This document shows, in pieces, positions 36,541 through 64,000 of a stretch of 64,000 bases of DNA (the stretch's first letter is position 1; every line of letters begins with the position of its first letter). A program made the translations under genes and the position numbers. The stretch spans positions 198,863-262,862 of the forward strand of contig JBPOGI010000007.1 in NCBI GenBank assembly GCA_051251855.1, written 5' to 3'. Under the pieces are notes generated by a model that saw nothing but the letters and a program-made list of their open reading frames with translations, had not been told where the DNA came from and ran no database searches. This stretch comes from Roseibacillus sp. GTDB taxonomy: Bacteria; Verrucomicrobiota; Verrucomicrobiia; Verrucomicrobiales; Akkermansiaceae.

Positions 36541-36548
36541 CTAGTTAT

Positions 36549-36622
36549 GTCCCAGCAATGGGATGTGCGTTGTTGTTCCCACGAGCGGGAGTTGGTTTCG
36601 ACCAGCTCTCGCTCATTTTTTT
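36549..36622 (+). ncRNA. Putative small RNA, copy 3
   Basis: Hairpin GUCCCA-GCAA-UGGGAU (36549-64) and an identical linker (36565-82). The terminator stem carries a compensatory G:C to A:U pair (GGGAG...CUCUC). It ends in seven U. Confidence 0.6.
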
Positions 36623-36921: not shown

Positions 36922-39900
36922 CTAGAATTGCGGCAAGGGATAGATGTGAGACCTCTTGTCATCTCCCGGCAAGACTTTCACCATCACTGCTCGATGTGAT
37001 TCAATCAAGAGGTCCGCGTCACGGTTCAAGAGTTGCGAGTCGTTCAAATCCAACCAGTAGTTGTAGGGTCCAGCGTCGGCCAACATGTATCCTAAATACC
37101 CCGTCTTATATTCGGTGACACCCACCTCATCAACAACACGGTCGCCTTTCCAGAACAGAAGCTCGGAACTCTTCGTTGGAGAAGCTCCGCCATCAAAACC
37201 AGCAGCCAAGGTAAGATCCCGGCCATTAGCTCCCGCCGGCGATTGGTCCAAAGGCCACATCGCCCCTGTGAGGTTGAAGCCTTCGTTCATGGGAGCCGCT
37301 TGGTCATAATCAGCAACCATTCCGAAAGTGAACTGCTCCACTGGAGGAATCGTCGCGGGAGCAAGCGCATCCCCAGAGCTCTTGGGATGAATCCAATTTC
37401 CCATCGAAGGATCCAGACGGAGGCCTCCCTGGTCAACTTGAGCGAAAGGATCAGTCACCCGAATCCATTTTGTATCGGGAGCCGTGCCAACCAACATCAA
37501 GGTTTCGAATCCAGGATCACTCTTTCGAACATCATAGAAGAGCAGTCGGGTCGCATCCGCTGGATTTGAGTCCTCTTCGCCGGCAAATGTCGTCGTCTTA
37601 TCGAACACTTCATCGATGGTGCGATAGCGAATCACTTCGTAGCTTGCTCCATTAAGTCCACTATCGGTGGGCAAACCATCGAGAGTATTCAGGGAGGCCA
37701 CTGCGGTGTCAAAAATATCACTATCGTTGAGAAGAGAGATCGTTCCAATACCACCGCCCAGAATATCGAAGCGGTGTCCTTCAAAAAGACCGCTCGTAAT
37801 CTGGAGATACTTTTCACCATTGCTTCCGACAACGGATGACAAGTCCACGTTCCCTACTGAGTCGCTAACATCTAAGATGATGTCTCCGGTTTCAGAGTCT
37901 GTCGCAAGGGTGAGAACCCCACTACCGAAGGTACCACTCAACTCAGGCTTCTCTTTAAAGGGAGAACTAAAGCTGAGGCACTGATAGTCGCCAAACAGAT
38001 TGCACTGCCAACCAAAGGTCCTACTGTAGAAGACTTCATCTGGAGTAATGGTCTCACTGCCGTCGACATCGATCTCCACCTTCATTCGAACAACTCCATT
38101 CTGAGGAGTCACCGGTCCGGTGGAATTTTGAATATCGCTATAGATAACTTTCTCGGCCTCCACTGGAACATCAGCGTCCGTGATGTTCACAGTAGGCGTG
38201 ATGTCAGACAAGTCACTCCACACAGTCGGGGTATCCAAGGTCGCAGCCCCTTGCAGGGTGTAAGTCACATCATTGAGACCACCACGACGACGCATGAACT
38301 GGGCAGTGACGCTTCCATCAGGAGCCTTGGTGAGACAGAACTCGCCGTGTCCGGGAAGTCCATCACCAGGGTTTAGGCAGAAGGCATACTCCAGAGCATT
38401 CGGATAGATATCTCCATCAGGATTGTCAGCCAAGCCATCGTTGGTTCCGGGGTTTGAGGTGTGGTCCAGCGCACTATCGTTCGTGTCTTGGAACTCGGTA
38501 TAAGTGCCGGACTTTGGAGAAGTGAAGCCAAAGTCATAACTCGCGTTGGCTCCTTCTCCTGATGGATCGGCCTGCTGGTCGGTGGCGGTTTGACCCTGGA
38601 TGGCAATAGCCGGCGCTCCCGCAGGGTCGTTGCTATCGGTCAAACTGGTGGCCGTTCCACTTTCGATCACAGTAGGCTCGGTTCCTGTCGGAGTTTGCAC
38701 GGAGAGAACATAAGTCGGCTCTGCGCCTGCCCCGTCTCCATTGTAGTCCTCGTCCATGAGCAGATTGCCAAAGTCATAGTGACCTGTTGTGTCTGTTACA
38801 TCAGTGAGAGAGACAACCGTTCCGTCCGGATAAGTGATGGTCAAGGTGACCACCGCACCTTCGATGGCAGGTTCGCCACTCTCTTGCACACCATCATTGT
38901 TGCTGTCGAACCAGACGTAGTTTCCAATCGCAGCAGGATCCTTGTAGTAGCCAAAGTCGGCGGTGTCATCGTCGGGATTTCCTGAGTCGATGGTCACAGG
39001 ATAGCCGCCGTCCTCCTGACTGTTGCCATCGGTGCCAGGATTCGGTCCCACGCTATGCCAGTAACCGTCGAGTTCATTGCCGTCGTCCGTCACCACCACG
39101 ATGTAGTCATCGAATGGAAGGCCATCGAAGAGATACTCCCCATTCGCGTCCGTAGTGGTTGTTCCAACCGCCGGATCACCTGAGTCCACAATCCCGTCGC
39201 CATCGATATCGCGATAGAGCACCACGGTGACGCCTTCGATTCCAGCTTCGCCACCGTCGAGAACTCCGTCACCATCGACATCATTCCAAATGGTCGTTCC
39301 AATGCTTCCTCCGTCAGTCGAAACATAACCGAAGTCTTGGTCCACATTATCCGGTGCTCCACTGGTCAAAGTGACCTCGCTCTCTGAATCAAGTCCCCCA
39401 TCGTTGTCGAAGGTATTATCAAGGGCTTCCAAGACGCCACCCGGGTCAAAGTTGCTGTCAGCAATCTTCACCGTGTAGTCGGCGCCGGCAGCACCGCTGC
39501 CATCATCAAGAGGTAAACCTCCGAAGTAGTAGCTACCGTCAGGACCGGTCTCGGTCACTGCGATGAGCTCACCTTGTTCATCGTAGAGTTCGACCAACAC
39601 CCCGGGGAGACCCGTATCGGACTCGTTCTGGTCAGCGCCCCCATCGGCATCCAGCCAGACGTAGTTGCCAATCGAACCGGTCTCGGCCGCAGGCTGGAAT
39701 CCGAAGTCTTGAGCATCGTCATTCCGCGTCGTGGCATCGGTGGTGTCTAAGCTCAAGGTTGAGGAGTCATCCGTTCCACCATCGCTTCCGCTCTCAGTTG
39801 GAACCGGACTAAACTCTGGAGGCAAGGTCGAGGTATCGACCTGCACCGTGTAGGAGATGCCCGAGTCAGGATCGAGGTTCGGGAAATTGTAGTTTCCATT

Positions 39901-42900
39901 CTCGTCCGTAACGGTGGTCCAAGTCTCGGTTCCATCGGTCAAAGTAACCGTCACTCCAGCCAAGCCAGGCTCATTCGCATCTTGGGTGCCGTCACCATCA
40001 AGATCAGCATAGATGGTGTCGCCAATGCTACCGACAGGTTCACCAACAGTCGCGGGAGGATAGCCGAAGTCTTGGTCGAGGTCGACCGGTGTTCCGCTGC
40101 TCACAGTCACCGAGCTGCTACTGTCTCCATCATTCTCTGGGTCTCCAGTTGGAGCCGCATCATAGCCATCTGGCAAGGTCGTGGTATCGACTTCTACGGT
40201 GTAATCTCCTAGAGGTAACTCTGGGAAGAGGTAGTTTCCGTTCGAATCCGTAACCGTGGTCGCAATCAGAATCGTGCCAGTCACATCGTAGAGATTGACC
40301 GTGATACCGGGAAGCCCCTGCTCGCCGGCGTTCTGGCTACCATTGGAATCGTCGTCCGCCCAAATGGTATCGCCAATCGCGCCCAAGGTTCCATCAGCTG
40401 GGTAGCTAAAGTCTTGCGCTCGGTTATCCGGAGCGACATCCGTGAGAAGCACCGGACTCGAGGAGTCGTTATTGCCATCACTATCGTGTGTCGCAGCGGT
40501 CTGATAACCAGCGGGAAGAGTCGCGGTATCGACTTCGACTACGTAACCACCGAGTGGCAGCCCGTCAAAGAGGTAGTTCCCGTTCGAGTCGGTCACTGTA
40601 GTTGCGATGATGTCGTTAGCATCGACAGAACCGTCGCCATTCACATCATCCGCGAGGCCATCACCATCGTCATCGGCATAAAGATTGACCACCACATCGG
40701 CGAGCCCAGGCTCGTTCCCTTGAGTGGACTGGTCGCCTCCGCTGCTATCGAGGTCTCCCCAAACGGTATCGCCAATGGAACCGAGGGCTTCACCTGAAGT
40801 GTAGCCAAAGTCCTGATCGTCTACGTCGGGAGTTCCCGCATCAATCGTAGTCGCGCTCAAGTTCGGAGTGCCTGCGACGCCATCGGCATCATAGGTTTGC
40901 TCAAGGCCACTTAAGACTCCATCAGTATCGTTCACCCAGACGATGTAGTCATCATAAGGCAAGTTATCGAAGATGTAGCTTCCATCGCTGGCAGTAGTGG
41001 TCGTGTTGATGATGGGCTCTCCCACATCCCAAACTCCGTCTCCATCGAGGTCATCGATCAAGCTCACCGTCACTCCGCCGATCCCTGGCTCACCCGCATC
41101 TTCTACCCCGTCTCCATTGAGGTCATTCCAAACGGTGTCGCCAATGCTTCCGAGAGGAGCAGTCACTTCCGGCTGATAGCCAAAGTCCCCATTGAGGAAG
41201 ACATCTCCTGGAGCCAGCACGATAGGCTCGCTCTTACCATCATTGGCAGAGAAAGCGGTATCCGTTTCTGCAAAGTGATCCGGATCTCCCGTCTGAAGGT
41301 AGTCGCTTCCCAGAATATCATGACTCGCAGTCGCGCTATCGGTCACCTCAACGACATAGGCATCAGGAACCAAACCATCGAAGTAGTAGCGACCATTGCT
41401 ATCGGTCGTCGTCGTGCCAACAAGGTTATCATAGACGCCATCACCATCATGATCATTGTAGAGGCTCACCTCAACACCCGCGACGGGCGCTTCGCCATCA
41501 TCTTGAATGCCATCACCATCGGCATCGATCCAGATGAAGTCTCCCAGAGCCGCGACCTCCGCACCGGCAGTCGCCGTCGGGTCATTCACCTCACCCGCAG
41601 GATTGATGTTGTAACCAAAGTCCGCCGTAGAGTTGTCCATCGGCTCAGTTCCACCCAGAAGCACTGGGTAGCCATAATCACCTGCACCGGGGTCATCGGA
41701 ATCATCCTGATTGCCAAAGTCGCCACCCGAATTGGTGAAAGGGCTTTGGGTAAAGCCAGTGGGTAAGGTCGTCTCATCGACGTTCACATAATACTCCCCC
41801 GCAGGAAGGTCAGTGAAGAGGTATCCCCCATCGGCATCCGTGTAGGTAGTAGCCACCACGTTGCCGTCGCCGTCATAGAGGTCGACTTTCACATTCGCGA
41901 GACCCGGCTCACCATCATCCTGATAGCCGTTGCTGTCCTCATCATGCCAAATGTAGTTACCAATCGTTCCAACCGGAGGACCAATGAGTCCAAGGTCAAG
42001 GTCGGTATCGCTATCACCCGCTGCCAAAGTGACCGTCTGGGTACGACCCGTCATCACATCCGCATCACTGTCGGTGTTGGTATCGGCAACCGTATCATCG
42101 CCATCGGCGTTCTGCTCGGTAGGCCCGTATCCGTAAGGCAAGGTGCTGTAGTCAAATTCCACATAGTAGTCACCGGCCAAGAGGTCATCGAAGAGGTAGT
42201 TTCCTTGGGCATCGGTCGAAGTCACGCCAACCACCGTGTCGGTGGCCGCATCATAGACCCGCACAGTGACACCCGGAACTCCGGACTCGCCGGGATCCTG
42301 AAGGCCATTGCCGTTGCCATCAATCCAGACAAAGTCACCTAGGGAGGCCAAGTCTTCACCAAAGTTGAAGTCCACTCCGCGCTCACCACCCGCAAGGGTG
42401 ATTCCGGTAATGGTATCCGAACCTGCCGTCCCTTGGTCAGCAGTAGTGCTGCTGGGAGAAGCAGTGGTATCAACAAGGTCCCCTGCGTCCGTCGTGGTCG
42501 AGAACCATCCTTCAGGTTGCGTCTCGGTGACATCGTAAGTTCCAGGATTGATTCCCGCGAAGCTGTAGTTGCCATCGTCATCGGTGACGGTGGTCAGCTC
42601 AACAGCGTTCCCGAAGATATCGGTTCCAGTCAAAGTGATGGTCACGCCAGGAATACCCGCCTCGGTGAGGTCGAGGTTTCCAAGATTGTCCGCACCGGCG
42701 TCGCCATCGGCACGGTCGTCATCGTGATAGACCGTTCCGCTCAAGCTCGCGAGTTGCTCTAGAATCACATCAACCTCTGCTGGGTCGCTGTTGTCGCCTA
42801 AGTCGGTCTCCGCACTAGTCGTTGCAATGTTCGCAATATTGACCTGAGTCTTCTGCCAATTGGAAGTCATGTAGGCCTGGTCAACCGTGAAGGTCACGGT

Positions 42901-45900
42901 GACGGAACCAGTAGCTCCCGGCGTTAAGATTCCTGCGTTGTAACTAAAGTCATTGGCTGAGCCAAGTGTGCCCGGCGTTGCCGACTGAATCACCAGACCA
43001 TCGGGCAAGGTATCCGAGATGACCACGTCCGCGGCATCGCCGTTACCATTGTTGCCATAAGTGATGGTGAAGGACCCACCTCCGTATAAGTCGACCACGG
43101 CGGTATCAGCCACCTTCTCAATCCAGACGTTAGCCAAGCCATTGGCATCGGTAATAACGGTCAGCGCGCTGTCATCGTTATTATCGTAATCGCTCTCCTG
43201 TCGATCGTTCGCAATCGTAACCACGTTGTTGAGGCTGTCGCCGGCCACGCCACCAGTTTCGGTGACCTGCACAGTAAAGCTTCCACTCGCTCCGGTCGCT
43301 TGGTCGCCGAGATTCCAAATCAAGGCCGTCAAACCACTGCCCTCGTAATCCGCATCTACAGTTGGTGAGCCACTCGAGCTCACGTAAGTCGTATTAGCGG
43401 GTAGAATATCGGTCACCACTGCGTTTAGCGCTCCCTGTGGTCCGAGGACCTCCCAAGCAATATCATAGTTGATGGTCTCGCTTGCTCCCTCTTTAACCGC
43501 TCCGGTGTCTACCAGCTTGCTCACAGCCAAGTCTGTTAGGCGCAGGTTGATGGAATCTTCCGCCGTATTATTGGCGGTGTTGTCATCGATCTCTGGGGTG
43601 CTCGTCGCAATTGAAATGGTGTTATCAATAGTGCTCTGACCAACGGGCGCAGGATCGTCCACCATCACCTGGAAGGTGAAGCTAGGCACTTCTTCCACCA
43701 CATAAGTCGCACGCCAAGAATTGAAGCAAGCCATCGCTGACTCATCGGTGCTGGTCATGGTCACCCGCAAAATCATTTCCGAATTTGCAATATCGATAGA
43801 TGAGATATCAGCAAAACCGTCTTCGAGTTCGGCCGGACCAAAGAGAGTCGTGGTGTCGGCTGCGTTTCTCAACTCAAACGTCGTCGTTACCGCATCGTCT
43901 GCTTCGACGCTGACAAGAAGTCGGTCCCATTTCGTCAACGTTCCTGCGGCAACGACCGGATAGTCTTCAGTGACAATCGTCTCGTATGCTTCGAAACCTG
44001 AACGCAATTTCGCAACAATGACTCCTGGGCGAGTGGCATCACTTCCTTGGCTCACTATTCCGAAAGTGGCAGTCGCGCCCCCCATACCATCGTAGACATA
44101 AGTTGGATTTGTGATTCCAGGTGAATAGTTCACCCCTGCGTTGAGCTGACTTCCGTAGAAGAGCTCCAGAATGCCGTCTCCATCGATGTCGTAGCTATTC
44201 ATTCGCTGCCCACCATTTTGACCTTGGCGGAAGATGTATCCATTTCCTTCGATGGGACTCAGCTTACAATACTCCCTCAGAGTGCCATCGGCATTGGGGT
44301 AGAAAATGTAGGTGGCTCCACGGTTGCTGGCATTTCCTGATGTGTTGACTGAAGAGGTAATATCATCATCGTTCGCCGCCGAGACCGCAAACTCACTCAG
44401 TCCATCGCCATCCAAATCGCCGACAGCCGCAACTCCGTATCCGAAGTTATCATTGGCATCCAAAGCCAGAGCGGGAGTGGTTAGATTCGAAATCTTACTC
44501 ACCTTTTTAAGTTCACCCGTAGTCTCGAGAAGAACGATATATGCCGCCCCTGTCGCAGTATATCCATCATCGTCACTCGAAGCTCCAACCACCAGGTCCT
44601 CCGCTCCGTTGCCATCCAAATCTCCAACAAAACTCAAATCGAATCCGAACAAGTCGCCGGAATCCAAATAACCACTCAGTTCCGCACTACGAGCCGTCTG
44701 CATCTTGATAAAACTCGTAACATCTCCTGTCATGTGGCCATTGATGTCTCTTTCCAGCCAGAAGAAGTAGTATCCTCCCCGCGAAGAATCCAGGCTCACA
44801 TCTCCTGCAACCAAGACGGAATCACCGCTACCGGCAAAGTCCTCAATGTAAGTGAGTCCTCGTCCAATTCCCACGGAACCCTGATCGTCAGCTCCGGTCA
44901 CACCACTGGCGGTAACGAAGCCACCAGTTCCAGAAACTATCTTCTTCAAGTCCTTCAACGATCCATCCGTATCTAGGAACAAGAGATAGACCGCGCCACG
45001 GCCCACGTTTCCAACATTCGTTCCATAGGCTCCAACCGCGAGATCAGGGATTCCATCGCCGTTCACATCGCCGATTGGCTCCAAGGAATATCCAAAATAG
45101 TCAAAGGCTGAGAGACCGGCCAAAAGACCACTCGCGGCAGCCGTTCCCTCCGCAATTTCAACGCTAGATTTCACGGAGCCATCAGCATTCATGAAGTTGA
45201 TCAGAACGGCTCCTTGATTCACATTGACCAAGTCCATCTCATTGGATTCATCCAAATCACGGAACGGAGAACCGACTGCGTAATCAATCACGCCATCATT
45301 GTCGATATCACCCACGGCATGATAGGTGACTTGATGGGAGCGTGTGTGCGCTCGATCATCGGTAACATTGGGGATATCATTATCAACGTTTGTGTCAAAG
45401 GCGACGTGTTGATCGTAACCAGCATCGAGTGCGCTCACTTCAGACAAAAATGACTCAACCTCCACTTTAGGCAGTGGTTCGAGACAAAGAACAGCGCCAG
45501 GGCTTCCTGCCGGCTCTTTTCTAACAAAGACCCGATGGATGGTGTCCGCAGAATCATCACCCAATACATTGTCCAGTTCCCAGTCATCACCATTGGCACG
45601 AATGGCCCAGTTGGCTACACCATCCTGATAGAAAGGAAGTTCGGTGAGCGCATAGTCCCCCTCATCATCATTCTCCTCTGTCGCAAGGGCCGGAATATTC
45701 GCGGTATGGCCAGGCACACCAACCCAGTTTCCATCGTAATGAAAGTGATTGAAGTCGCCTGTGCCAGTCTTCACATAATCATTGCCCCTCATGAAGTCAT
45801 CGGTCGTCCGAATGTTTACCACTCGCTCATGATCGGAAGTCCGTCCTTGGAACAGCATCGTGTCAAAACCAAGGGCGGCAGCCAACCCATTGCCAGCATG

Positions 45901-51612: not shown

Positions 51613-52054
51613 ACTAAATCTTATATGATTACTTATTTATCTTAACTAAAAGGAACCCCGCAATGAAGCCCAATCACCTCTCGAGCAACCCGATGACACA
51701 ACTAACTCCAAACTGACGTAAAGTCTTAGCGACCAAGCCTTCCAGAAAAGGCAGCCCACATCCCTGTAAGGGCCTAGAAAACTCGTGCCTTGTTAGAGCA
51801 GAATGGCGAGGATTTGGTCACCCCCAGTATACCTACACCTTTAAGTTAACTTTCAATCCTCTCTACTGAAGCGAGAGAAGGTTGAGCTCATCTTGAATGC
51901 CGGTTGAAGTCATCACTTTAAAGTGAGCGATCATCTCACAACCAGCTCAAGCCAAACTCACAGGCCTCGTTAGAACCTGTTAGTCTTCTTTTGACTCCAT
52001 AAGCAAAGACGGCCTAAACCACGCCTTCTGAAATGCAACTGGGAACTCAAGGCC

Positions 52055-52792: not shown

Positions 52793-52872
52793 CTGAGAAT
52801 CGTCACATAAGTTGACAATCAAAGCAAGTTTATCAATCGGGTGGCAGCTACCATTTTTGGCCTAAGCCAAGT

Positions 52873-53763: not shown

Positions 53764-53805
53764 ACTGGGTTGTTAGCGAGAAGAACTCGTTAGCTTTACG
53801 GTTTA

Positions 53806-54549
53806 CTACTGCCCACGTTGACGGCGCAAGAGCATGAGAGAACTCAGGCTTACCAACAACGCGGTGGTAGGCTCGGGAACAAAAGTAAAAGTCTGCACCA
53901 GATAATCTTTCCCTGTGAAACTATGAACGCCGCCACCTTCGGTCGCACCTTGGTTAATCCCACCCCACACCACATTCTCGGCGTCTTGCACCCGCCAATC
54001 CAAGTCATCGGCTGGGTTATGGCTCTCTGGAGAGACGAAGGGAAATTGCCAACTGTCTCCGCCACCCGAACTGCGCGTGTATAGCAACCATTCTGATCCT
54101 GGAGCAGTAGCGTTACTATTTCGAATAAAGACGTAGGCTTGCTTCCCTTGCGCAAACTCATAGGACGAATTGACCATGGAGTCTCCTGAAAGAGAGTTGT
54201 TATCAGAAGTCAGAATATCACGTCCTCCAAATCGAGTAGGATCGCCAGGATTCAAAAAGTCAGCGCTATCTTCGTCGCTATCAACGATGGCATCAAAGAC
54301 CCGCCATTCTCCAACCCAACTGGAAGTATTCGAGCTCGTTGGAGAGAAAGAGCCGTCGAAAGTACCCAACTCGATCGAGTATCCCCCATCGGTGAAGCTA
54401 CCGTCACCCAAGGTTATGGGAGTACCATTGCTATCAATGACCGAGCCCGGAGGAAAAATGTTAGAGCCCCAATCGATGGTCAACTCTTGACCAAGAGCAG
54501 AACCAGCTGAAAGCGCACTAATGAGACAAAAAATCTGAGGGAGTCGCAT
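53806..54549 (-). CDS. PEP-CTERM sorting-domain secreted protein, paralog 3 of the family
   Basis: Signal peptide MRLPQIFCLISALSAGSALGQ. The C-terminus is FVPEPTTALLVSLSSLMLLRRQRGQ. The body is colinear with 52055-52792 (ELGTFDGSFSPTSSNTSSW..W.VFDAI, GKQAYVFIR, SEWLLYT, ENVVWGGIN). Confidence 0.78.
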   Translation of the reverse strand: MRLPQIFCLISALSAGSALGQELTIDWGSNIFPPGSVIDSNGTPITLGDGSFTDGGYSIELGTFDGSFSPTSSNTSSWVGEWRVFDAIVDSDEDSADFLNPGDPTRFGGRDILTSDNNSLSGDSMVNSSYEFAQGKQAYVFIRNSNATAPGSEWLLYTRSSGGGDSWQFPFVSPESHNPADDLDWRVQDAENVVWGGINQGATEGGGVHSFTGKDYLVQTFTFVPEPTTALLVSLSSLMLLRRQRGQ

Positions 54550-54663
54550 AATCTCCCCAAAGAATAGACAAGACTGATATTATGGGAAGGTTAATCTTTG
54601 TCCGTATTTCGCTCATTCTAACTCCCTGCAGGAGGAGGTCTTGAGCCCCTCCCCCCTTCCTAG

Positions 54664-57600
54664 TTAGAATTGGGGCAGTGGATAGATGTGAGACCTCTTT
54701 TCATCACCTTCCAAGACTTTGACCATCACTGCTCGATGAGACTCGATAGTCAAATCGGCATTGCGGTTCAACAGCTGCGAGTCATTCAAGTCCAACCAAT
54801 AATCGAAGGGACCTGCATCCGCTAGCATGTAGCCAACATATCCTGTTTTGTATTCAGTAACAGTAGCGTCATCAACAACGAGGTCCCCTTTCCAAAAGAG
54901 GAGTTCCGTGCTCTTGCTTGGGGAAGTGCCCCCATCGAAACCCGCTACCAGTGTCAAATCGCGCCCATTAGGTCCGGCAGGTGACTGGTCAATCGGCCAC
55001 ATCGCACCTGTAAAGTTGAACCCTTCATTCATCGGTGCCGCCTGAGCGTAATCAACAACCATTCCGAAGGTGAACTGCTCCACTGGAGGAGTCGTCGCAG
55101 GAGCGAGGGCATTGCCAGAGCTCTTAGGATGAATCCAATTTCCCATCGAAGGATCAAGACGGCGGCCACCTTGGTCGACCTGGGCAAAGGGATCCGTGAC
55201 GCGAATCCACTTTGTGTCAGGAGCGGTGCCAACCAACATCAGGGTATCAAATCCAGGGGAACTCTTACGGGTATCATAGAAGAGCAAACGCGTCGCATCG
55301 GCAGGATTGGAGTCCTCTTCACCCAAAAAGGTGGTCGTCTTATCAAAGGCTTCATCCACCGTGCGATAGCGAATCACTTCGAAACTCGCTCCATTGAGCC
55401 CGCTATCTGTGGGCAATCCATCGAGCGTATTGAGAGAGGCTACCGCTTCGTCAAAGATGTCATCATCATTGAGCAAGGTGATAGACCCCATCCCACCGGC
55501 AAGAATATCGAAACGATGTCCTTCGAAAAGACCACTCGTCACTTGCAGGTAATATTCTCCATCAACGCCAACGAATGAGGACAAGTCGAGGTTACCCACT
55601 GAATCGCTGACATCCAAAGTGATATCTCCAGTCCCAGCGTCTTCAGCCAGAGTCAAAACTCCACTTCCAAAGGTTCCGCTCAAACTTGGCTTCTCCTTGA
55701 AGGGCGAACTAAAGCTCGCACACTCGTAGTCGTTATAGGCGTTGCACTGCCAACCAAAGATGCGGGTGTAGAAAACCTCACTGGCTTCGTAAGTGCCACT
55801 CGCATCCGCATCAACCTCAACTTTGACTCGCACCACACCACTCACAGGAGAGGTCGGAGCTGCGCTCTGGATATTGAAGTAAGTCACCTTCTCTGCTTCG
55901 AGGGGCACATCGGCATCCGTGGTATTAACGGTCGGAGTCACGTTAAGAGTGCTCCAAGTGGTCGGAGTGCCAAGAGTCGACGCCCCTTCGAGGGTGTATC
56001 TCACATCACCAAGTCCTCCACGACGGCGCATGAATTGCGCGGCAACCGTGCCATCTGCCGCTTTTTCAAGACAGAATTCACCGTGCCCGGGAACTCCGTT
56101 GGCGGCATTCAGACAGAAGGCATACTCGAGGGCATTCGGATAGATGTCTCCGTCAGGGTTGTCCCCGAGTGCGGTCTCTCCATTGAGGGTCGAACCGTAA
56201 CTTGCAAGATAGGCCCCATAAGTATCACTCTTTCGAATCTCGACAAAGTCGTTACCGCTGTCGGTTTCACCCGCATCCAATGTAACGGGAATGAGGTCGT
56301 CAGTCGTCGAAGCATTCGACTGGTCTGCCGTGGTTCCAGTATCAGTTGTGCTGTCGAGGTCGGTGACCGTAACGAAGTTGTTTGGCTGAGTCTCTTTCAC
56401 CGTATAGCTGCCAGGAGCGAGGCCTGTGAACGCATAACTTCCATCAGTCGTGGTCACGACGTAATCCTGAGTGCCTGCAAGATTTGGATTATCCGCAGGA
56501 CCTTCTCCGGCATCATCGCTGTCTCCGTCACCATTGAGGTCGGTGCAAAGGGTGAGGGTGACCACGTTAATCACAACATCGCCGCCACCATCTCCATCGG
56601 TGTCTTCGTAGATCGTTCCCGCAATCGCAGCGGCCTGAACGAAGCCAAAGTCCACCGTGAGATTGGTGTTGTTATCATCAGCAGTGTTGACCGCATTGGC
56701 TGCGTCTTTTCCTGCTTCGCCCGTAGGCTCCGCATTGTTCGCAAGGTCAATCACGGTCGAAGTGACACCATCACTGGTGACGTCATCCCCGTTCTCATCG
56801 ACGTTGTCATCACTTCCAATGTCGCCACCTTGACCAATCACGGGAAGATAGCCCACGAGGTCTCCCCCAGTGGTGAATTCGCTCGCTGGAATCACGATGT
56901 AATATTTTCCGGAAGGTAAGTTACTAAAGAGGTAGCAACCGCCGCTTGCGGTAACCATCCCTCCTGCCGCATCATCAGCACTGCCAAGAATTCCGTCGGG
57001 GCCAACGTTGATTTCGACATCATCGCCACCGCCAATTTGGTCGTCTCCTCCAGCGCTGAAAATCTGAACGCTGATGCCATCAAACCCTTCCCCAGCATCG
57101 TAGACACCGTTGTTGTTGAGGTCAGTAAAGACGAGGTTACCCACCGCCACAGGAACTTCTTCAACGAAGTCGTTGCCGCCATCGGTTTCACCTGCATCCA
57201 CAGAAACAGGGATGAGGTTGTCGCTCGTCGAAGCATTCGATTGGTCCACGGTCGCGCCCGTGTCAGTCGCGCTATCAAAGTCGGTGACGGTCACATAGCC
57301 ATTTGGCTGAGTCTCTTTTACCACGTAGCTCCCTGGAGTGAGTCCAGTGAAGGCATAAGTGCCGTCGGTGGTGGTAAGGATGTAATCCTGAGTGCCCGCA
57401 AGATTTGGATTATCCGCAGGACCTTCTCCCGCATCATCACTGTCTCCGTCGCCATTGAGATCGGTGCAGAGTGTGAGGGTGACCACGTTAATCACAACAT
57501 CGCCGTTTCCATCTCCATCGGCGTCCTCGTAAATCGTTCCCGCAATCACTGCAGGTGCGACGAAGCCAAAGTCGACGGTCAGGTCGGTGTTATTATCGTC

Positions 57601-60600
57601 GGCAGCATTGACCGCATTGGCTGCGTCTTTTCCTGCCTCCTTGGTTACCTCCGCATTGTTGGCAAGGTCAATGACGGTTGAAGTGACGCCATCACTAGTA
57701 ATGTCATCCCCGTTCTCATCGACGTTGTCATCACTCGCAATGTCTCCACCTTGACCAATCACGGGAAGATAGCCCACGAGGTCTCCCCCAGTAGTGAATT
57801 CGCTCGCAGGAATCAGGATATAGTATTTGCCTGAAGGTAGATTGCTAAAGAGGTAGCAACCGCCACTTGCGGTCACCATGCCGCCTGCAGCGTCATCAGC
57901 AGTGCCTAGGATTCCGTCAGGACCCACGTTGATTTCGACATCATCACCACCGCCAATCTGGTCGTCTCCTCCAGCGCTGAAAATCTGAACGCTGACGCCA
58001 TCAACCCCTTCGCCAGCATCGTAAGCACCGTTATTATTGAGGTCGCTAAAGACGAGGTTACCGACGGCAACAGGAACTTCTTCAACAAAATCGTTACCGC
58101 TATCGGTCTCTCCTGCATCCACAGTCGCCGAGATGAGATTGTCGCTCGACGAGACATTCGATTGGTCTGCCGTCGCACCCGTATCAACCACACTATCGAG
58201 GTCTGTGACTGTCAGAAAGCCGTTTGGCTGAGTCTCTTTCACGACATAGCTCCCTGGAGTGAGACCAGTGAAGGAATAAGTGCCGTCAGTGGTGGTAACG
58301 ATGTAATCCTGAGTGCCCGCAAGATTTGGATTATCCGCAGGACCTTCTCCAGCATCATCACTATCTCCGTCGCCATTGAGGTCGGTGCAGAGTGTAAGAG
58401 TAACCACGCTGATGACCACATCGCCGTTTTCATCTCCATCGGTGTCCTCGAAGACAGTTCCTGCAATCGCAGCTGGCAGTTCTTCAACGAAGTCGTTGCC
58501 GCCATCGGTTTCACCCGCATCAACCGTCACTGGGATGAGGTTATCACTCGTCGAAGCATTCGATTGGTCCACAGTCGTGCCTGTGTCTGAAGAACTGTCG
58601 AGGTCGGTGACCGTCAAATAGTCGTTTGGTTGAGTCTCTTTCACGACATAGCTTCCGGGAGTCAATCCGGTGAAAGCATAAGTACCGTTGGTCGTTGTGA
58701 TGGTGTAATCCTGAGTGCCCGCAAGGTTCGGATTATCGGCAGGGCCTTCACCAGCATCATCGCTATCTCCGTCTCCATTGAGATCGGTGCAGAGTGTAAG
58801 AGTAACCACGCTGATGACAACATCGCCGTTTTCATCTCCATCGGTGTCCTCGAAGATCGTTCCTGCAATCGCAGCTGGCAGTTCTTCAACGAAGTCGTTG
58901 CCACTATCAGTCTCCCCCGCATCAACGGTAACAGGAATGAGGTTGTCGCTGTTCGAGGTATTGGTTTGATCCACGGTAGCACCCGTGTCCGCTGAGCTAT
59001 CGAGGTCAGTGACCGTCAGGAAGCCGTTTGGCTGAGTCTCTTTCACGACATAGCTTCCCGGAGTGAGTCCGGTAAAGGCGTAAGTTCCATCGGTCGTGGT
59101 AATGGTATAATCCTGAGTGCTCGCGAGGTTCGGATTATCCGCAGGACCTTCTCCAGCATCATCACTATCTCCGTCGCCATTGAGGTCGGTGCAGAGCGTA
59201 AGAGTAACCACGCTGATGACAACATCGCCGTTTTCATCTCCATCGGTGTCCTCGAAGACAGTTCCCGCAATCGCCGCCGGCTCCACGAAGCCGAAGTCGA
59301 CGGTGAGGTCTGTATTATCATCGTCGGCAGCGTTGACTGCATTCGCCGCATCTTTTCCATTCTCTTTGGTGGGCTCTGCATTGTTCGCAAGGTCAATCAC
59401 AGTGGAAGTAACGCCATCACTGGTAGTATCGTCTCCATTTTCATCAACGCTATCATCGTTGCCGAGGTCTCCACCTTGCCCAATCACGGGAAGATAGCCC
59501 ACGAGGTCTCCGCCAGCAGTGAATTCGCTCGACGGAATAAGAATATAGTATTTACCGGAAGGTAGATTGCTAAAGAGGTAGCAACCACCACTTGCGGTCA
59601 CCATGCCGCCAACAGCATCATCTGCAGTGCCAAGGATTCCGTCGGGACCCACGTTGATCTCCACGTCGTCACCACCGCCAATCTGGTCGTCTCCGCCAGC
59701 ACTATAAATCTGAACACTGACGCCATCAACTCCTTCACCAGCGTCGTAGACACCGTTGTTGTTAAGGTCGCTGAAGACGAGGTTACCCACCGCGACAGGA
59801 ACTTCTTCAACGAAGTCGTTGCCGCCATCAGTTTCACCCGCATCAACTGTCACTGGGATGAGGTTATCACCGGTCGAAGCATTCGATTGGTCCGCGGTCG
59901 TGCCTGTGTCAGTAGAGCTATCGAGGTCGGTGACCGTCAGATAGTCGTTTGGCTGAGTTTCCTTCACGACATAGCTCCCCGGAGTCAGTCCGGTGAACGC
60001 GTAGGTGCCGTTGGTAGTAGTAACAGTGTAATCCTGCGAGCCAACGAGATTCGGATTATCAGCAGGACCTTCTCCGGCGTCATCGCTGTCTCCGTCACCA
60101 TTGAGGTCGGTGCAGAGCGTAAGAGTGACCACATTGATAGCGACATCGCCGTTTCCATCTCCATCGGTGTCTTCGTAGATCGTTCCTGCAATCGCTGCTG
60201 GCAACTCTTCAACAAAGTCATTGCCGCTATCGGTCTCCCCCGCATCCACAGTAGCAGGAATAAGATTGTCGCTCGTCGAGGCGTTAGATTGGTCCACGGT
60301 AGTTCCAGTATCAGCCGCACTGTCGAAATCGGTGACCGTGAGATAGCCGTTTGGCTGGGTCTCCTTCACGACATAACTTCCAGGAGCCAGTCCCGTGAAC
60401 GCATACGTGCCATTGGTAGTGGTGATTGTGTAATCCTGAGCGCCTGCGAGGTTAGGATTATCAGCAGGACCTTCTCCGGCATCGTCACTATCTCCATCAC
60501 CATTGAGGTCGGTGCAGAGGGTAAGAGTGACCACGTTAATCACAACATCGCCTCCCCCATCTCCATCGGTGTCTTGGTAGATTGCTCCCGCAATCGCAGC

Positions 60601-63528
60601 AGGTCGCTCCTCAACAAAATCGTTGCCGCTATCCGTCTCATCCGCAACGACGCTTACAGGAATACTATTATCCGTTGTGCTCGTGTTCGTGCCATCGTCT
60701 CCGGGAATGGTGGTGTCACCATCAGTCACGGTGAGAAAACCACTCGGCTGGTCTTGCACAACCACGTAATCCTCGGGGGCAAGATTGGTGAAGGCATAAG
60801 TCCCGTCGGTGGTGGTGACGACATAGTCCTGTGTTCCGGCAATATTGGGATTATCGATTGCAGTGGTACCGTCGCTCGCGAACAAACGAATGGTCGTCAC
60901 ATTAATGACAACATCGCCATCATCGTCATTGTCTGTGTCCTCAAAGGTCGTTCCGGTGATACTTGCAATCGGAATCTCCAGCGAAAGGTTCACGCTACCC
61001 ACACAACCAGCGGTGTCAGAAGCGGTCACCGCAAAATTGAAAGAGTTCCCCTCTGTCGGAGTTCCAGAGAGCACGCCAACATTGCCACTATCGACAAAGG
61101 ACATTCCCGCCGGTAAAGAACCAGACGAAAGAGTCCACGTCACCGCGCCGTTGGCTCCAGGTGCGGTGAAATTAACCGGTCCATAACTCTGACCGAACTG
61201 TCCGTCAGCAAGCGTGGAAGGAGTGATTACGAGAGCATCGCAACTCACAGAAATCGTAAAGGTTGCCGTTCCAACACACCCCTCATCATCGGTCGAAGTG
61301 ATCGTGAAAGTTTGTGATTCAACAGTTGTAGGAGTTCCTTGAATCTTGTCGCCAACAATCGACAACCCATCTGGCAGAACCCCAGAGGTAACCACATAAC
61401 TATAGGGTGCAACTCCACCGAAAGTGGCGAGAGTTTCACTATAAGGCACTCCCACCTCTCCAGCGCTCAAACTCGGAGGCCCCACGGTGAGAACCGGACA
61501 GGTAAACCCGAAGTCGTAACTGTAATTTTCATCACTCGCAGGACTTGTGACAAAAATTAGAGCTTCGCCACCAACGGGAGAGGCATCAGAATCCAAGTCA
61601 TCCCCCGTTGGGCTGTTGTTTGTCACTCCCCCAGCATTGGTGGGGCTCAAAACAAGACCATTTAGAGGAGCTTGACTGACATCGATACAGACGCGGTAAG
61701 ACGTCGAAGCTTCAAGTCCATCCGCATTCCCAAAGTAGTAAAATCCAGATGAATCCGTTGTCGTTGTAAGAGGAACAGGTGGACTGCAATCGATGTTAAA
61801 GTTATTCAATCTCACTCGCTTCGTTGCCAAGTCAGCATCACTCCTGACCCGGATTCGATTGGCGGTGTTCGGAAGAGGAAGAGCACCGCTTGATTGAACG
61901 GCACCATCCAAGCCAGCACCATCGATAATCGCCAAGGCAGTCCAATCAACCCCACCATTTTCAGAATACTCGAAAAAGAGTTGGTCCGTCGACTCCCATG
62001 CTAAATTGTAGCGCTCATAGTCAAAGCTCAAGAAAGCAGAACGACAACCACTCAAGTCGAGCGCACGAGAAACGTCTGCCGTAGACCGTATCGTAATCAT
62101 CTGGTCGCCACCAAAGTCCTCAATCTGCACGAGACCTTCATTCGTGCCATCACTCGCAGCCGCTGTCTCACTATCGAGCCAAGGTCCTTCAGAAGGCCAC
62201 CCCCCCAAGCCACCCCCACTCCAAGAACCTAAATTGCCATCGAGAGAATAGCCTGAAATCGCATCGGCATGGCTCGAGGCTGGAACGCCATCCACCATCA
62301 CCGGATCACCATTGCTGTCTTGAAGACAAACGACCACCCCCTCAATTCCTGGCTCACCAGCATCCCGGTCGCCATCTCCATTGAGGTCTTCCCAAACAAG
62401 GTTCCCGATCGCTACAGTATCAATATCAGCAGTCACCTTGAGGACAGGAGCCAAAGCGTCACCATCATTGCGACAACCTTCCACCCAGCGCAGACCAATC
62501 AAATCACCGGACGATGGGTTGCTCGCACCAAAGAGTGCCCGCGGAATCACAGCTTCGATAATATAGGTCGGAGCATCGTTTTCCTCGTTCCCACTCGGAA
62601 ACTCATAACGATAATAGTCCACATAAGTCGCATTACCCAGCAACGTCGCGGTCGCTTGAGGGTGACTTGGGTCAAAGTTCGTGTGCTCATAATCTGCCTG
62701 AACGTGACCCACTCGTGAACCAGTATACCAGTCGCCCACGGTAGGATAAACGATATCACTCGCTGTCGCCGGCAAATCTGAAGTGGTCTCATAGAACCCG
62801 CTTCCCAAGTTAAAAGAGTTCATGAACGAAGTGGAGAACGTTCCCGTACCCACCGTCACAACATCCTCGTTGGTATTATCGTTATTCGGGCGGACATCGT
62901 CGGTGATGTCTAATCCATAGTTGTAGCTCCAAGTGGTGGCATTATTCTCATTCCGCTCAGTGCCAGCCTTGAACAAGCTAATGGAGACGTCTCCCGGACG
63001 AATAAATGCTCGGGTTGCATCGATGCGAGGATCCACGATACCAATATCATCCACATCTTCGTCTCCATCCAAGTCGATGTTCGCGAATGGAACCGAAGTC
63101 ACAATCGCCAGGTAGATATAATCCTCATCGTTGTCGAGATAGAGGGCCTCAACATCATACCACTCACCGCCCGATGGATAGTTGTCAGCGTCCGGCGTCC
63201 CTGGGGCCGGGGTGTGATCAATCGAGGTTTGTCCAAAGGCATTGTCCCATGTTCCGAACCAATCCCCTTCCGTCCAATCTACCGTGCCTACATTTTTTGT
63301 AGGAACAAAGCTGGTGTGATCAAACATATAACCCCCATTAGGGCCCGTACCATCGTTATAACCCGCTGCCGCATTTAATGTCGCCTCCAACTCGAGCGTC
63401 ACACCAAATCTGGATTGTAAAAGCTTCTCACCCGCGGGAGGCGCTGGTGCGGCGTACAAATTGAAAGTTTGCGCGCACAATAGGGTGGCCAAGGGCAATT
63501 GTAATAATTTCGGCAATGTCGAATTCAT
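54664..63528 (-). CDS. Giant secreted adhesin-like protein (about 2954 aa from ATG 63528; 2966 aa from GTG 63564): jelly-roll-like and He_PIG-type Ig domains, 11-unit Cna-B-type tandem array, conserved C-terminal module
   Basis: Signal peptide MNSTLPKLLQLPLATLLCAQTFNLYA. Two putative Ig (He_PIG-like) units are present (GVPYSETLATFGGVAPYSYVVTSGVLPDGLSIVGDKIQGTP; GQSYGPVNFTAPGANGAVTWTLSSGSLPAGMSF). A long near-identical repeat array follows. The last 500 aa are homologous to the end of the 4896-aa protein. Confidence 0.85.
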   Translation of the reverse strand: MNSTLPKLLQLPLATLLCAQTFNLYAAPAPPAGEKLLQSRFGVTLELEATLNAAAGYNDGTGPNGGYMFDHTSFVPTKNVGTVDWTEGDWFGTWDNAFGQTSIDHTPAPGTPDADNYPSGGEWYDVEALYLDNDEDYIYLAIVTSVPFANIDLDGDEDVDDIGIVDPRIDATRAFIRPGDVSISLFKAGTERNENNATTWSYNYGLDITDDVRPNNDNTNEDVVTVGTGTFSTSFMNSFNLGSGFYETTSDLPATASDIVYPTVGDWYTGSRVGHVQADYEHTNFDPSHPQATATLLGNATYVDYYRYEFPSGNEENDAPTYIIEAVIPRALFGASNPSSGDLIGLRWVEGCRNDGDALAPVLKVTADIDTVAIGNLVWEDLNGDGDRDAGEPGIEGVVVCLQDSNGDPVMVDGVPASSHADAISGYSLDGNLGSWSGGGLGGWPSEGPWLDSETAAASDGTNEGLVQIEDFGGDQMITIRSTADVSRALDLSGCRSAFLSFDYERYNLAWESTDQLFFEYSENGGVDWTALAIIDGAGLDGAVQSSGALPLPNTANRIRVRSDADLATKRVRLNNFNIDCSPPVPLTTTTDSSGFYYFGNADGLEASTSYRVCIDVSQAPLNGLVLSPTNAGGVTNNSPTGDDLDSDASPVGGEALIFVTSPASDENYSYDFGFTCPVLTVGPPSLSAGEVGVPYSETLATFGGVAPYSYVVTSGVLPDGLSIVGDKIQGTPTTVESQTFTITSTDDEGCVGTATFTISVSCDALVITPSTLADGQFGQSYGPVNFTAPGANGAVTWTLSSGSLPAGMSFVDSGNVGVLSGTPTEGNSFNFAVTASDTAGCVGSVNLSLEIPIASITGTTFEDTDNDDDGDVVINVTTIRLFASDGTTAIDNPNIAGTQDYVVTTTDGTYAFTNLAPEDYVVVQDQPSGFLTVTDGDTTIPGDDGTNTSTTDNSIPVSVVADETDSGNDFVEERPAAIAGAIYQDTDGDGGGDVVINVVTLTLCTDLNGDGDSDDAGEGPADNPNLAGAQDYTITTTNGTYAFTGLAPGSYVVKETQPNGYLTVTDFDSAADTGTTVDQSNASTSDNLIPATVDAGETDSGNDFVEELPAAIAGTIYEDTDGDGNGDVAINVVTLTLCTDLNGDGDSDDAGEGPADNPNLVGSQDYTVTTTNGTYAFTGLTPGSYVVKETQPNDYLTVTDLDSSTDTGTTADQSNASTGDNLIPVTVDAGETDGGNDFVEEVPVAVGNLVFSDLNNNGVYDAGEGVDGVSVQIYSAGGDDQIGGGDDVEINVGPDGILGTADDAVGGMVTASGGCYLFSNLPSGKYYILIPSSEFTAGGDLVGYLPVIGQGGDLGNDDSVDENGDDTTSDGVTSTVIDLANNAEPTKENGKDAANAVNAADDDNTDLTVDFGFVEPAAIAGTVFEDTDGDENGDVVISVVTLTLCTDLNGDGDSDDAGEGPADNPNLASTQDYTITTTDGTYAFTGLTPGSYVVKETQPNGFLTVTDLDSSADTGATVDQTNTSNSDNLIPVTVDAGETDSGNDFVEELPAAIAGTIFEDTDGDENGDVVISVVTLTLCTDLNGDGDSDDAGEGPADNPNLAGTQDYTITTTNGTYAFTGLTPGSYVVKETQPNDYLTVTDLDSSSDTGTTVDQSNASTSDNLIPVTVDAGETDGGNDFVEELPAAIAGTVFEDTDGDENGDVVISVVTLTLCTDLNGDGDSDDAGEGPADNPNLAGTQDYIVTTTDGTYSFTGLTPGSYVVKETQPNGFLTVTDLDSVVDTGATADQSNVSSSDNLISATVDAGETDSGNDFVEEVPVAVGNLVFSDLNNNGAYDAGEGVDGVSVQIFSAGGDDQIGGGDDVEINVGPDGILGTADDAAGGMVTASGGCYLFSNLPSGKYYILIPASEFTTGGDLVGYLPVIGQGGDIASDDNVDENGDDITSDGVTSTVIDLANNAEVTKEAGKDAANAVNAADDNNTDLTVDFGFVAPAVIAGTIYEDADGDGNGDVVINVVTLTLCTDLNGDGDSDDAGEGPADNPNLAGTQDYILTTTDGTYAFTGLTPGSYVVKETQPNGYVTVTDFDSATDTGATVDQSNASTSDNLIPVSVDAGETDGGNDFVEEVPVAVGNLVFTDLNNNGVYDAGEGFDGISVQIFSAGGDDQIGGGDDVEINVGPDGILGSADDAAGGMVTASGGCYLFSNLPSGKYYIVIPASEFTTGGDLVGYLPVIGQGGDIGSDDNVDENGDDVTSDGVTSTVIDLANNAEPTGEAGKDAANAVNTADDNNTNLTVDFGFVQAAAIAGTIYEDTDGDGGGDVVINVVTLTLCTDLNGDGDSDDAGEGPADNPNLAGTQDYVVTTTDGSYAFTGLAPGSYTVKETQPNNFVTVTDLDSTTDTGTTADQSNASTTDDLIPVTLDAGETDSGNDFVEIRKSDTYGAYLASYGSTLNGETALGDNPDGDIYPNALEYAFCLNAANGVPGHGEFCLEKAADGTVAAQFMRRRGGLGDVRYTLEGASTLGTPTTWSTLNVTPTVNTTDADVPLEAEKVTYFNIQSAAPTSPVSGVVRVKVEVDADASGTYEASEVFYTRIFGWQCNAYNDYECASFSSPFKEKPSLSGTFGSGVLTLAEDAGTGDITLDVSDSVGNLDLSSFVGVDGEYYLQVTSGLFEGHRFDILAGGMGSITLLNDDDIFDEAVASLNTLDGLPTDSGLNGASFEVIRYRTVDEAFDKTTTFLGEEDSNPADATRLLFYDTRKSSPGFDTLMLVGTAPDTKWIRVTDPFAQVDQGGRRLDPSMGNWIHPKSSGNALAPATTPPVEQFTFGMVVDYAQAAPMNEGFNFTGAMWPIDQSPAGPNGRDLTLVAGFDGGTSPSKSTELLFWKGDLVVDDATVTEYKTGYVGYMLADAGPFDYWLDLNDSQLLNRNADLTIESHRAVMVKVLEGDEKRSHIYPLPQF
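56239..60951 (-). repeat. Tandem in-frame array A1-A2-A3-B1-A4-A5-A6-B2-A7-B3-A8 (A = 402 bp/134 aa, B = 519 bp/173 aa) inside the 2966-aa gene
   Basis: Antisense shadow ORFs at 58313, 58715 and 59117 start with identical peptides exactly 402 bp apart. ORFs at 57110, 58037 and 59756 give a 921-bp A+B period. The protein units are nearly identical (TIYEDTDGDGNGDVVINVVTLTLCTDLNGDGDSDDAGEGPADNPNLAGTQDY...). Confidence 0.9.
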
Positions 63529-64000
63529 AAGGAAGGGGGGACTTGGGGGATTTGAATGAAACACCTCGACATCACATCAGCTTCCCGAAGGCGGGAATTT
63601 GCTGCGCAGCTCGAAGCATGACACTATTTTATTTAATTTTAAAAAATAGTCAACGTTGATGTATTTTTTTAAACTCCGAACTTTTCTCACAAGAGAACAG
63701 GATTTAACGTAACCAGCTAAAAAAGAGTGCTTTACCTGGAAAACCAAAAGAAAGAAAAAAAGAGCGGAAACAAAGAACGCGTCAACCCTAAGTATTTTTA
63801 TATAGAAAAAAAGGATCGCTCCGACAAAACATCCGAATTTAAAATGAATTTACATATAAAATATAATATCTAATTCAGCCGGAATGAAGAAACGGCAGGG
63901 AGAAAGCCGCATACCAACAGCCCCCATCAACCCTTGTGTCCAACATCAAAGCAGATAGCCCTGCGAGAAATATCAGCTCAGCAGGCCCTAGTTCAATCCT

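Follow-up and report, generated by a model that had tools for sequence, protein, structure and literature searches.

Giant adhesin-like genes of Roseibacillus sp. share an unannotated C-terminal module and are coupled with genes of small p-domain proteins across Verrucomicrobiales

The present analysis was carried out on a stretch of 64,000 nucleotides from a Roseibacillus sp. genome (assembly GCA_051251855.1, contig JBPOGI010000007.1, positions 198,863 to 262,862), hereafter called the window, and focused on five co-oriented genes of its minus strand: two giant adhesin-like genes, G1 and G2, and three small genes, p1, p2 and p3, located between them. It defined two unannotated protein families, a C-terminal module of ~500 amino acids (aa) shared by the two giants and a domain common to the three small proteins, hereafter the p-domain, and revealed that these two families are genetically coupled across Verrucomicrobiales. 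We propose that the last part of the module, subdomain B, may dock the giant onto p-domain partners that would be sorted by an exosortase to the cell surface, a reading that we hold to be only just short of probable. A preliminary description made from the sequence alone had already reported the five genes, and the listing of open reading frames (ORFs) gives all of them at the positions that it had indicated:

54664-63564, minus strand: G1, 2966 aa
53806-54549, minus strand: p1, 247 aa
52873-53763, minus strand: p2, 296 aa
52055-52822, minus strand: p3, 255 aa (245 aa if its start is the ATG at 52792)
51613-52054, no strand: spacer of 442 bp between the G1-p1-p2-p3 cassette and G2, containing the own upstream region of G2
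36922-51612, minus strand: G2, 4896 aa

The successive intergenic gaps are of 114, 42, 50 and 442 bp. They agree with the gaps initially given (114, 42, ~80 and 442 bp), the value of ~80 bp fitting the alternative p3 start at ATG 52792, with which the p2-p3 gap is 80 bp.

The conserved unit is a giant gene followed by one or several p genes, and not a trio of small genes between two giants. Indeed, in 17 of the 19 informative loci, one or several p-family genes lie no further than two genes downstream of a module-encoding gene and have its orientation, and this association persists down to 27-30% identity between modules. Two architectures of p proteins recur in these loci: type A (signal peptide, p-domain and PEP-CTERM) and type B (signal peptide, p-domain and a tail related to subdomain A of the module). 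The number of small genes per cassette ranges from 1 to 4, and the two exceptions are G2 itself and its ortholog in Roseibacillus persicicus (locus L006). The genes found downstream of the giant in the other loci are the following (MAG, metagenome-assembled genome):

G1 of the window: p1, p2, p3
L003: p1, p2, p3, in one-to-one order and with 47-49% identity
L004 (R. persicicus): p1, p2, p3, p2′
L005 (MAG JB023): type A, type B
L002, L007, L008, L009 and L010: type A (gap of 9 bp in L010)
L011: type B only, without PEP-CTERM
L012: type A, type B
L014, L016 and L017: type A, type B, VKOR gene (4-bp overlaps in L016 and L017)
L015: a 572-aa protein with p-domain and PEP-CTERM, whose start overlaps the stop of the giant gene
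L018: type A
L019: one unrelated gene, then type A

Therefore, the preliminary proposal of a functional unit made of the giant and its small paralogous neighbours is corroborated by this adjacency, whereas its architecture of two giants bracketing a trio has to be abandoned: the number of p genes varies, the cassette of R. persicicus is G1-p1-p2-p3-p2′, and the G2 ortholog of this strain lies on another contig. Synteny had also been named beforehand as the check on a chance juxtaposition of unrelated surface-protein genes. Although relatives do not retain the exact arrangement of two giants around a trio, the giant/p-gene pairing is found across deep divergence, often with overlapping genes; this effectively refutes juxtaposition by chance, to which we give practically no credence.

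The presence of the same module at the end of both giants, which had been noticed from their sequences, was confirmed: residues 2468-2966 of G1 and 4396-4896 of G2 (~500 aa, C-terminal in both) are 82% identical. The two giants are full-length members of the module family, with a DxDxDG/LEYAF motif, an immunoglobulin (Ig)-like subdomain A and then a subdomain B of ~375 aa that ends with PxP[WF] at the C-terminus of the protein. These subdomains are located as follows:

55792-56163, minus strand: subdomain A of G1 (residues 2468-2591), with a DNPDGD calcium-loop-like motif, LEYAF and an Ig-like beta sandwich
54667-55791, minus strand: subdomain B of G1 (residues 2592-2966), ~375 aa, acidic, all-beta, with an internal duplication and the end …HIYPLPQF
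36925-38049, minus strand: subdomain B of G2 (residues 4522-4896), of the G1 type

Sequence and profile searches with the module, including its divergent members, gave no match in Pfam, NCBIfam or PDB. The assignment of the module to a known secretion or anchoring domain had been set beforehand as an outcome that would speak against the initial proposal; profile and structure searches found no such domain. An exhaustive profile search among 1.84 billion cluster representatives retrieved 671 representatives (clusters at 50% identity) at E<=1e-3 and 314 at E<=1e-30, which overturned the rarity suggested by the 7-10 relatives obtained with a word-indexed search. Among the 128 complete cases drawn from the 150 best matches and from those of the earlier search, the module ends at most 20 aa from the C-terminus in 126, with a median distance of one residue. 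The proteins that carry it range from ~500 to 7,691 aa and their passengers vary, with SdrD_B, CLIPPER, Malectin, GEVED and carbohydrate-binding module (CBM)-like domains among them. A C-terminal handle that is conserved while the passenger varies usually denotes a domain for anchoring or sorting. The extreme terminus is itself kept, as PxPW(T/N)P or, in the Roseibacillus group, as PLPxF. The module occurs in several Verrucomicrobiota, as shown by scanning a single genome for each species. Three copies are encoded by R. persicicus KCTC 12988 (the best one 78% identical), others by additional Roseibacillus MAGs and by Verrucomicrobiota bacterium JB023, and more distant ones (27-29% identity) by a Verrucomicrobiales MAG and a Luteolibacter MAG. 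An Acidobacteriota locus (L013) was dismissed as spurious, as its match covers only 66 residues and lies outside any long ORF.

The AlphaFold2 model of the module, built from an alignment of 52 sequences, is of high confidence (predicted local distance difference test, pLDDT, 93.8; predicted template-modelling score, pTM, 0.92). An earlier model from nine sequences (pLDDT 50.6) was unusable and its Foldseek matches were meaningless. With the retained model, Foldseek found nothing at E<=1e-3 in PDB and BFVD, the best query-normalised template-modelling scores being ~0.16-0.17. Compact matches are limited to a stretch of ~110-130 residues and are weak; they correspond to Ig/CBM-like sandwiches (alpha-amylase N-domain, CBM21), and the modelled stretch concerned is presumably subdomain A. 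Compared with PDB and BFVD, the predicted structure of subdomain B would provisionally represent a new fold. Subdomain B contains 15% Asp+Glu and 6.5% Lys+Arg, and includes an internal duplication (module residues ~265-350 versus ~400-490, profile-to-profile hhalign Prob 98.2%). The duplicated unit is ancient, spans ~90-110 aa and carries the motif F.G..[ST]AD..[FW]…Y..Y.L…W…D. Because the confident model is compact, its strands are only 3-9 residues long and Asp+Glu are so abundant, subdomain B is predicted to be a compact soluble beta domain and not a membrane barrel.

This structural prediction bears on another explanation, according to which the module would be a secretion or translocation determinant for an undescribed outer-membrane route, the p proteins being co-exported accessory or chaperone factors and not anchors. 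Such a role would account for the nearly constant C-terminal position on variable passengers, for the conservation of the extreme terminus (PxPW(T/N)P or PLPxF) and for giants that have Sec signal peptides (read by eye) and no known outer-membrane route. However, the modelled module is compact, acidic and short-stranded, with no barrel; at ~500 aa, it far exceeds known sorting tags in size; no genes of transporters, i.e., type I secretion system (T1SS) ATP-binding cassette (ABC) and membrane fusion protein (MFP) components, TpsB or type IX secretion system (T9SS), are conserved beside the cassette in the window and the other loci; and the co-divergence of the PEP-CTERM partner with the module, described below, would be left unexplained. 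Overall, we consider a secretion determinant unlikely.

The proteins p1, p2 and p3 are paralogs (34-42% identity) that all have a signal-peptide-like N-terminus (read by eye) and share the unannotated p-domain of ~180-190 aa. They had been presented as three secreted PEP-CTERM paralogs. Their paralogy and signal-like N-termini stand, but PEP-CTERM was found only in p1 (17.4 bits with TIGR02595, for a cutoff of 16 bits) and p3 (21.1 bits), where the motif is also directly visible; p2, like G1 and G2, is not recognized by this model. Their distinctive ends are located as follows:

53809-53883, minus strand: PEP-CTERM (FVPEP…LLRRQRGQ) of p1, a type A protein (signal peptide, p-domain, PEP-CTERM)
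52876-53187, minus strand: subdomain-A copy of p2, a type B protein (signal peptide, p-domain, subdomain-A copy, no PEP-CTERM)
52058-52153, minus strand: PEP-CTERM of p3, a type A protein (signal peptide, p-domain, PEP-CTERM)

A profile built from 22 p proteins retrieved at least 185 clusters at 90% identity. None of them has a Pfam domain, their only names are "hypothetical protein" or "PEP-CTERM sorting domain-containing protein" (the latter being that of the 75% identical p1 ortholog of R. persicicus), and their named sources are nearly all Verrucomicrobiota. No relative of the p-domain was found in PDB. The end of p2 consists of a DPDADG..NLEEFAFG motif and a beta domain of ~80 aa, and type B tails end with RFxRVxVxLxP. 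Subdomain A of the module (~125 aa) is homologous to this p2-type tail (hhalign Prob 98.2%, E=4.5e-14). A match between the p2 tail and subdomain B is probably an artefact due to a few proteins with ~120-143 extra residues after the module, and an origin of the p-domain as a diverged copy of subdomain A or B was rejected (hhalign Prob <1%). As type A proteins, p1 and p3 should be processed by an exosortase and sorted to the cell exterior. The combinatorial sharing of domains (p-domain with PEP-CTERM, p-domain with subdomain A, passenger with subdomains A and B) and the variation of the p copy number from 1 to 4 could also be those of fibre subunits (tip, base or connector) that would assemble with the giants through their shared domains. 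This seems very unlikely to us: no pilin-like, sortase or usher machinery is encoded near the cassette in the window and the other loci, evidence of polymerisation was not found, and this explanation overlaps the docking one, a base subunit being an anchor.

Comparisons with R. persicicus shed light on the history of the giants. G1 and its positional ortholog L004 have modules that are 78% identical and p1 proteins that are 75% identical, while their passengers are almost unrelated (the sole alignment, within repeats, shows 34.6% identity). Judging from these sequences, the module handle and its partners travel together and the passengers turn over. G2 and the giant of L006 are 77.6% identical over 3842 aa, with sliding-window identities of 80-94% across much of the aligned body and of 61-78% at residues ~1660-2660, which fall to 54-60% past residue ~4470. 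Upstream of this point, the nearest sequence to G2 is its ortholog in L006; past it, those of G1 and L004 are nearest. The identities of subdomain B are 85.2% between G2 and G1, 81.2% between G2 and L004 and 55.7% between G2 and L006. According to these alignments, G2 is a chimera, its subdomain B having been exchanged for one of the G1 type, with the following breakpoint:

38113-38205, minus strand: approximate recombination breakpoint of G2 (residues ~4470-4500), deduced from sliding-window identities

Whichever lineage changed, the orthologous giants G2 and L006 differ in their type of subdomain B, and G2, which adjoins the partners of G1, bears the G1 type. A search of the region downstream of G2 and of the rest of the window found neither a p gene that would belong to G2 nor a degraded p gene. 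The cassette is bordered by MscS-like channel, extracytoplasmic function (ECF) sigma factor and HD-domain genes, whose order and orientation are identical in the window (32968-36169), in R. persicicus (L004, 15249-18323) and in MAG JB023 (L005, 13531-16480). Since the cassettes of R. persicicus and JB023 directly adjoin these neighbours, G2 corresponds to an insertion between p3 and the MscS/ECF sigma/HD genes, and the 442-bp spacer (51613-52054) is likely a junction of this insertion.

The distances between subdomains B correlate with those between the adjacent type A p-domains (Mantel r 0.82, p=1e-4, 14 pairs), and the same holds within the Roseibacillus clade (r 0.70, p=5e-4), including paralogous cassettes of single genomes. 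This co-divergence shows that the two domains are inherited as a pair; it is compatible with a specific binding and is no proof of binding. It should be compared with the predictions of a further alternative, in which the module would be a self-sufficient anchor, for example a lectin-like, calcium-aided domain binding the exopolysaccharide, lipopolysaccharide (LPS) or peptidoglycan of its own cell, the p proteins being merely co-expressed. The weak CBM/Ig-like Foldseek matches of subdomain A together with its DxDxDG calcium-loop-like motif, the lack of an own p gene for L006 and G2, and the connection of PEP-CTERM systems with exopolysaccharide and floc formation (PMC9850573) point in this direction. 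Nevertheless, co-expression alone predicts neither the presence of a G1-type subdomain B in G2 beside the G1 partners nor the maintenance of the pairing across paralogous cassettes, and no lectin or CBM relative of subdomain B was detectable by sequence, profile and Foldseek searches. We therefore judge a self-sufficient anchor improbable.

The domain content of the giants is that of long stalked proteins:

G1: signal peptide, N-terminal region of ~380 aa, SdrD_B/SpaA/He_PIG stalk and C-terminal module (from Pfam and the N-terminal sequence)
G2: signal peptide, N-terminal region of ~1200 aa, seven CLIPPER, DUF7619, FG-GAP propeller, SdrD_B stalk and C-terminal module

Pfam searches matched the CnaB-like SdrD_B domain in 11 stretches of each giant and the CnaB-like SpaA domain in seven stretches of G1 and four of G2. 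He_PIG is confined to G1, whereas DUF11 (now named CLIPPER, seven stretches), DUF7507, DUF7619 and FG-GAP are confined to G2, and a PDB sequence search related the FG-GAP region to the propeller blades of integrin alpha. Among the domains initially attributed to the giants, DUF11, Cna-B/SdrD-B, FG-GAP and He_PIG were thus recovered by Pfam, while jelly-roll-like modules could not be verified. The N-terminal regions of G1 (~380 aa; PDB sequence search of residues 1-400) and G2 (~1200 aa) gave no known relative, and a known adhesive head domain was identified in neither giant. Both proteins begin with a signal-peptide-like segment (read by eye). The true start of G1 is likely the ATG at 63528 and not the listed GTG at 63564, which prepends 12 residues (MFHSNPPSPPFL) to this ATG; the latter opens a typical signal peptide (MNSTLPKLLQLPLATLLCAQTFNLYA/AP). 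Pfam and NCBIfam searches of G1 and G2 revealed no match to PEP-CTERM, autotransporter, T9SS or RTX models, and an LPXTG motif followed by a transmembrane tail was not seen in their C-termini (…HIYPLPQF), in keeping with the lack of all these signals initially pointed out. The negative result obtained for autotransporters is meaningful because the same model did find a classical autotransporter gene in the window (2962-4719, minus strand), which encodes a VWA_4 passenger and a PF03797 beta-domain; this gene also indicates that type V secretion serves other surface proteins of the organism. Overall, G1 and G2 look like Sec-exported, fibrillar-adhesin-like surface proteins.

The mechanism that we tentatively favour for this cassette is the following. 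The giants would be exported through Sec as surface fibres, with a variable head, a stalk of isopeptide-type Ig-like repeats (SdrD_B, SpaA, CLIPPER) and the module as the cell-proximal end. Subdomain B would then bind the p-domain of the co-encoded partners. As the giant is devoid of any sorting signal of its own, a PEP-CTERM partner would tether it to the surface and might also carry it there. G2 would be a second giant that landed beside the G1 cassette, and the replacement of its subdomain B by the G1 type would allow it to share p1, p2 and p3. Two parts of this scheme have precedents: exosortases traffic PEP-CTERM proteins to the cell exterior (PMC12188702; 10.1101/2023.06.07.544157), and CLIPPER/DUF11 and CnaB-like repeats form the stalks of fibrillar adhesins, in which a separate sorting or anchoring domain is normal (10.1101/2025.04.25.650565). 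What the scheme would add to the observed genes, families and predicted fold is a binding between subdomain B and the p-domain, a location at the surface and the involvement of an exosortase, each of which is put forward here as an inference. In a broader form, it would amount to a hitherto undescribed two-component surface display of Verrucomicrobiales, in which signal-less giants belonging to hundreds of clusters at 50% identity would be docked through a domain of ~375 aa onto p-domain proteins, with specificities exchangeable by recombination; this generalization appears possible to us, somewhat short of probable.

Several points weigh against docking. (i) Adjacency and co-divergence would equally arise from a plain co-inheritance of the cassette. 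(ii) The role of type B partners is left unexplained, and the L011 cassette has a type B partner alone, without any PEP-CTERM. (iii) The G2 ortholog of R. persicicus (L006), on its separate contig, has no adjoining p gene, which implies that the pairing can act in trans or that the partner is not always needed. (iv) Neither the window nor the fetched flanks of the other loci contain an exosortase gene; the further PEP-CTERM-like tails encoded in the flanks of L004, L005 and L007 suggest that an exosortase system is present. (v) We know of no described way by which PEP-CTERM proteins, let alone a passenger of 5,000 aa, cross the outer membrane.

The giants and their partners can be compared with several known systems. 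They resemble fibrillar adhesins, such as staphylococcal SdrC/SdrD and B9T28_05395 of Acinetobacter silvestris (10.1101/2025.04.25.650565), by their signal peptide, their tandem isopeptide-type Ig-like stalk and their great length, and both giants carry stalk repeats typical of this group (CnaB-like, plus CLIPPER in G2). In these adhesins, an anchor is expected at one end; the candidate in the giants is the unannotated ~500-aa module and not an LPXTG or OmpA-like domain. Scores with the whole-protein models of SdrD (NF012181, 351 bits for a cutoff of 2500) and SdrC (NF000535, 285 bits for a cutoff of 1700) result only from the B-repeats and, together with the C-terminus …HIYPLPQF, place the giants outside the LPXTG-anchored adhesins known as microbial surface components recognizing adhesive matrix molecules (MSCRAMMs). 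With regard to PEP-CTERM/exosortase sorting (Haft; TIGR02595), p1, p3 and their orthologs end with the expected VPEP, hydrophobic helix and Arg/Lys cluster and score above the model cutoff, unlike the giants and p2. In the literature, we found no description of a PEP-CTERM protein acting as a dedicated partner of a separate giant protein, nor of the module, the p-domain or their pairing.

The closest analogy would be the cohesin-dockerin anchoring of cellulosomal scaffoldins, in which an anchorless large protein bears a terminal docking module held non-covalently by a small cell-bound partner, itself anchored by S-layer homology (SLH) domains or by sortase, and in which specificity types are exchanged by recombination, as proposed here for the cassette. 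However, there is no relationship of sequence or fold, the host of the cassette is diderm, and the interaction is only inferred in the present case. Type V secretion also combines a conserved terminal module with a giant passenger of hypervariable sequence and with a partner encoded next to it, but the giants lack a beta-domain and their partner has a soluble-type domain of ~190 aa with PEP-CTERM instead of the POTRA domains and barrel of TpsB; likewise, G1 and G2 differ from type Va autotransporters (PF03797, 12-stranded barrel), with no match to this family and short strands in the AlphaFold2 model. The C-terminal domain (CTD) of T9SS cargo proteins is, like subdomain A, an Ig-like sandwich found at the end of diverse large surface proteins, but the module is five times larger, and neither NCBIfam nor Pfam detected a Por_Secre_tail/CTD in the last 500 aa of the giants. 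To our knowledge, T9SS is a system of Bacteroidota and the wider Fibrobacteres-Chlorobi-Bacteroidetes (FCB) group. Finally, the giants differ from RTX adhesins secreted by T1SS, with no RTX match, signal-peptide-like N-termini and no adjacent transporter genes.

Additional observations concern the surroundings of the cassette. The ECF sigma factor encoded beside it could regulate it. In the Luteolibacter-type cassettes, where VKOR comes last after the giant, type A and type B genes, the VKOR-family genes are located at 19636-20754 in L014, 10900-12078 in L016 (with a weak Thioredoxin_4 match) and 8411-9493 in L017, the 4-bp overlaps in the last two loci being between the VKOR and type B genes. 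The type A proteins of these cassettes have vicinal Cys pairs (PDCC, GCCS), which, together with the VKOR gene, suggests a disulfide-forming enzyme dedicated to the cassette; there is no VKOR gene in the window. At positions 51400-54800, predicted promoter and terminator sites are no more numerous than after shuffling of the sequence; the spacer upstream of G2 contains a single weak terminator-like site (51671-51653), a number that does not exceed that of shuffled sequence. The 3′ end of G2 is separated from the MscS-like gene by 752 bp, in which positions 36187-36622 contain three direct copies of an element of ~118 nt, spaced by 170 and 148 bp. On the plus strand, each copy shows a GC-rich hairpin and, after it, a T-run (…GAGCGGGGGTTGGTTTCGACCAGCCCTCGCTCACTTTTTT). 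Its 40-nt core does not occur elsewhere in the window or in the fetched loci, and an Rfam scan of this repeat gave only sub-threshold ctRNA matches. These copies could represent stacked terminators, or else a small repeat element located where G2 was inserted. The GC skew of the plus strand is strongly negative (-0.12 to -0.36) over positions 1-36000 whatever the gene orientation, and much weaker (~-0.003 to -0.08) in most 2-kb windows of the giant-gene region (36001-64000), three of which reach -0.13 to -0.15. Elsewhere, a HerA-like ATPase gene (8145-10562, minus strand) adjoins a divergent ORF of 920 aa without Pfam match (10705-13467, plus strand), and the two may form a defence or DNA-translocation module (8145-13467). 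Lastly, a gene encoding a 939-aa vWF_A/VWA/YfbK_C protein (22160-24979, minus strand) is preceded by that of a second ECF-type sigma factor (25028-25693, minus strand), in what looks like an anti-sigma-like pairing unconnected with the giant locus.

Overall, the locus belongs to a known kind, that of giant surface adhesins, here with a putative new anchoring module and a dedicated PEP-CTERM partner. The function of PEP-CTERM proteins and the retention of giant adhesins by diderms other than Proteobacteria are both poorly understood. R. persicicus KCTC 12988, a culturable carrier of the cassette, makes the proposed docking directly testable. If it holds, both families would merit new Pfam/NCBIfam entries. 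Docking would also give PEP-CTERM proteins a defined client-adaptor role, the first of its kind, and would explain how these abundant marine and soil bacteria display very large, fast-changing surface fibres.

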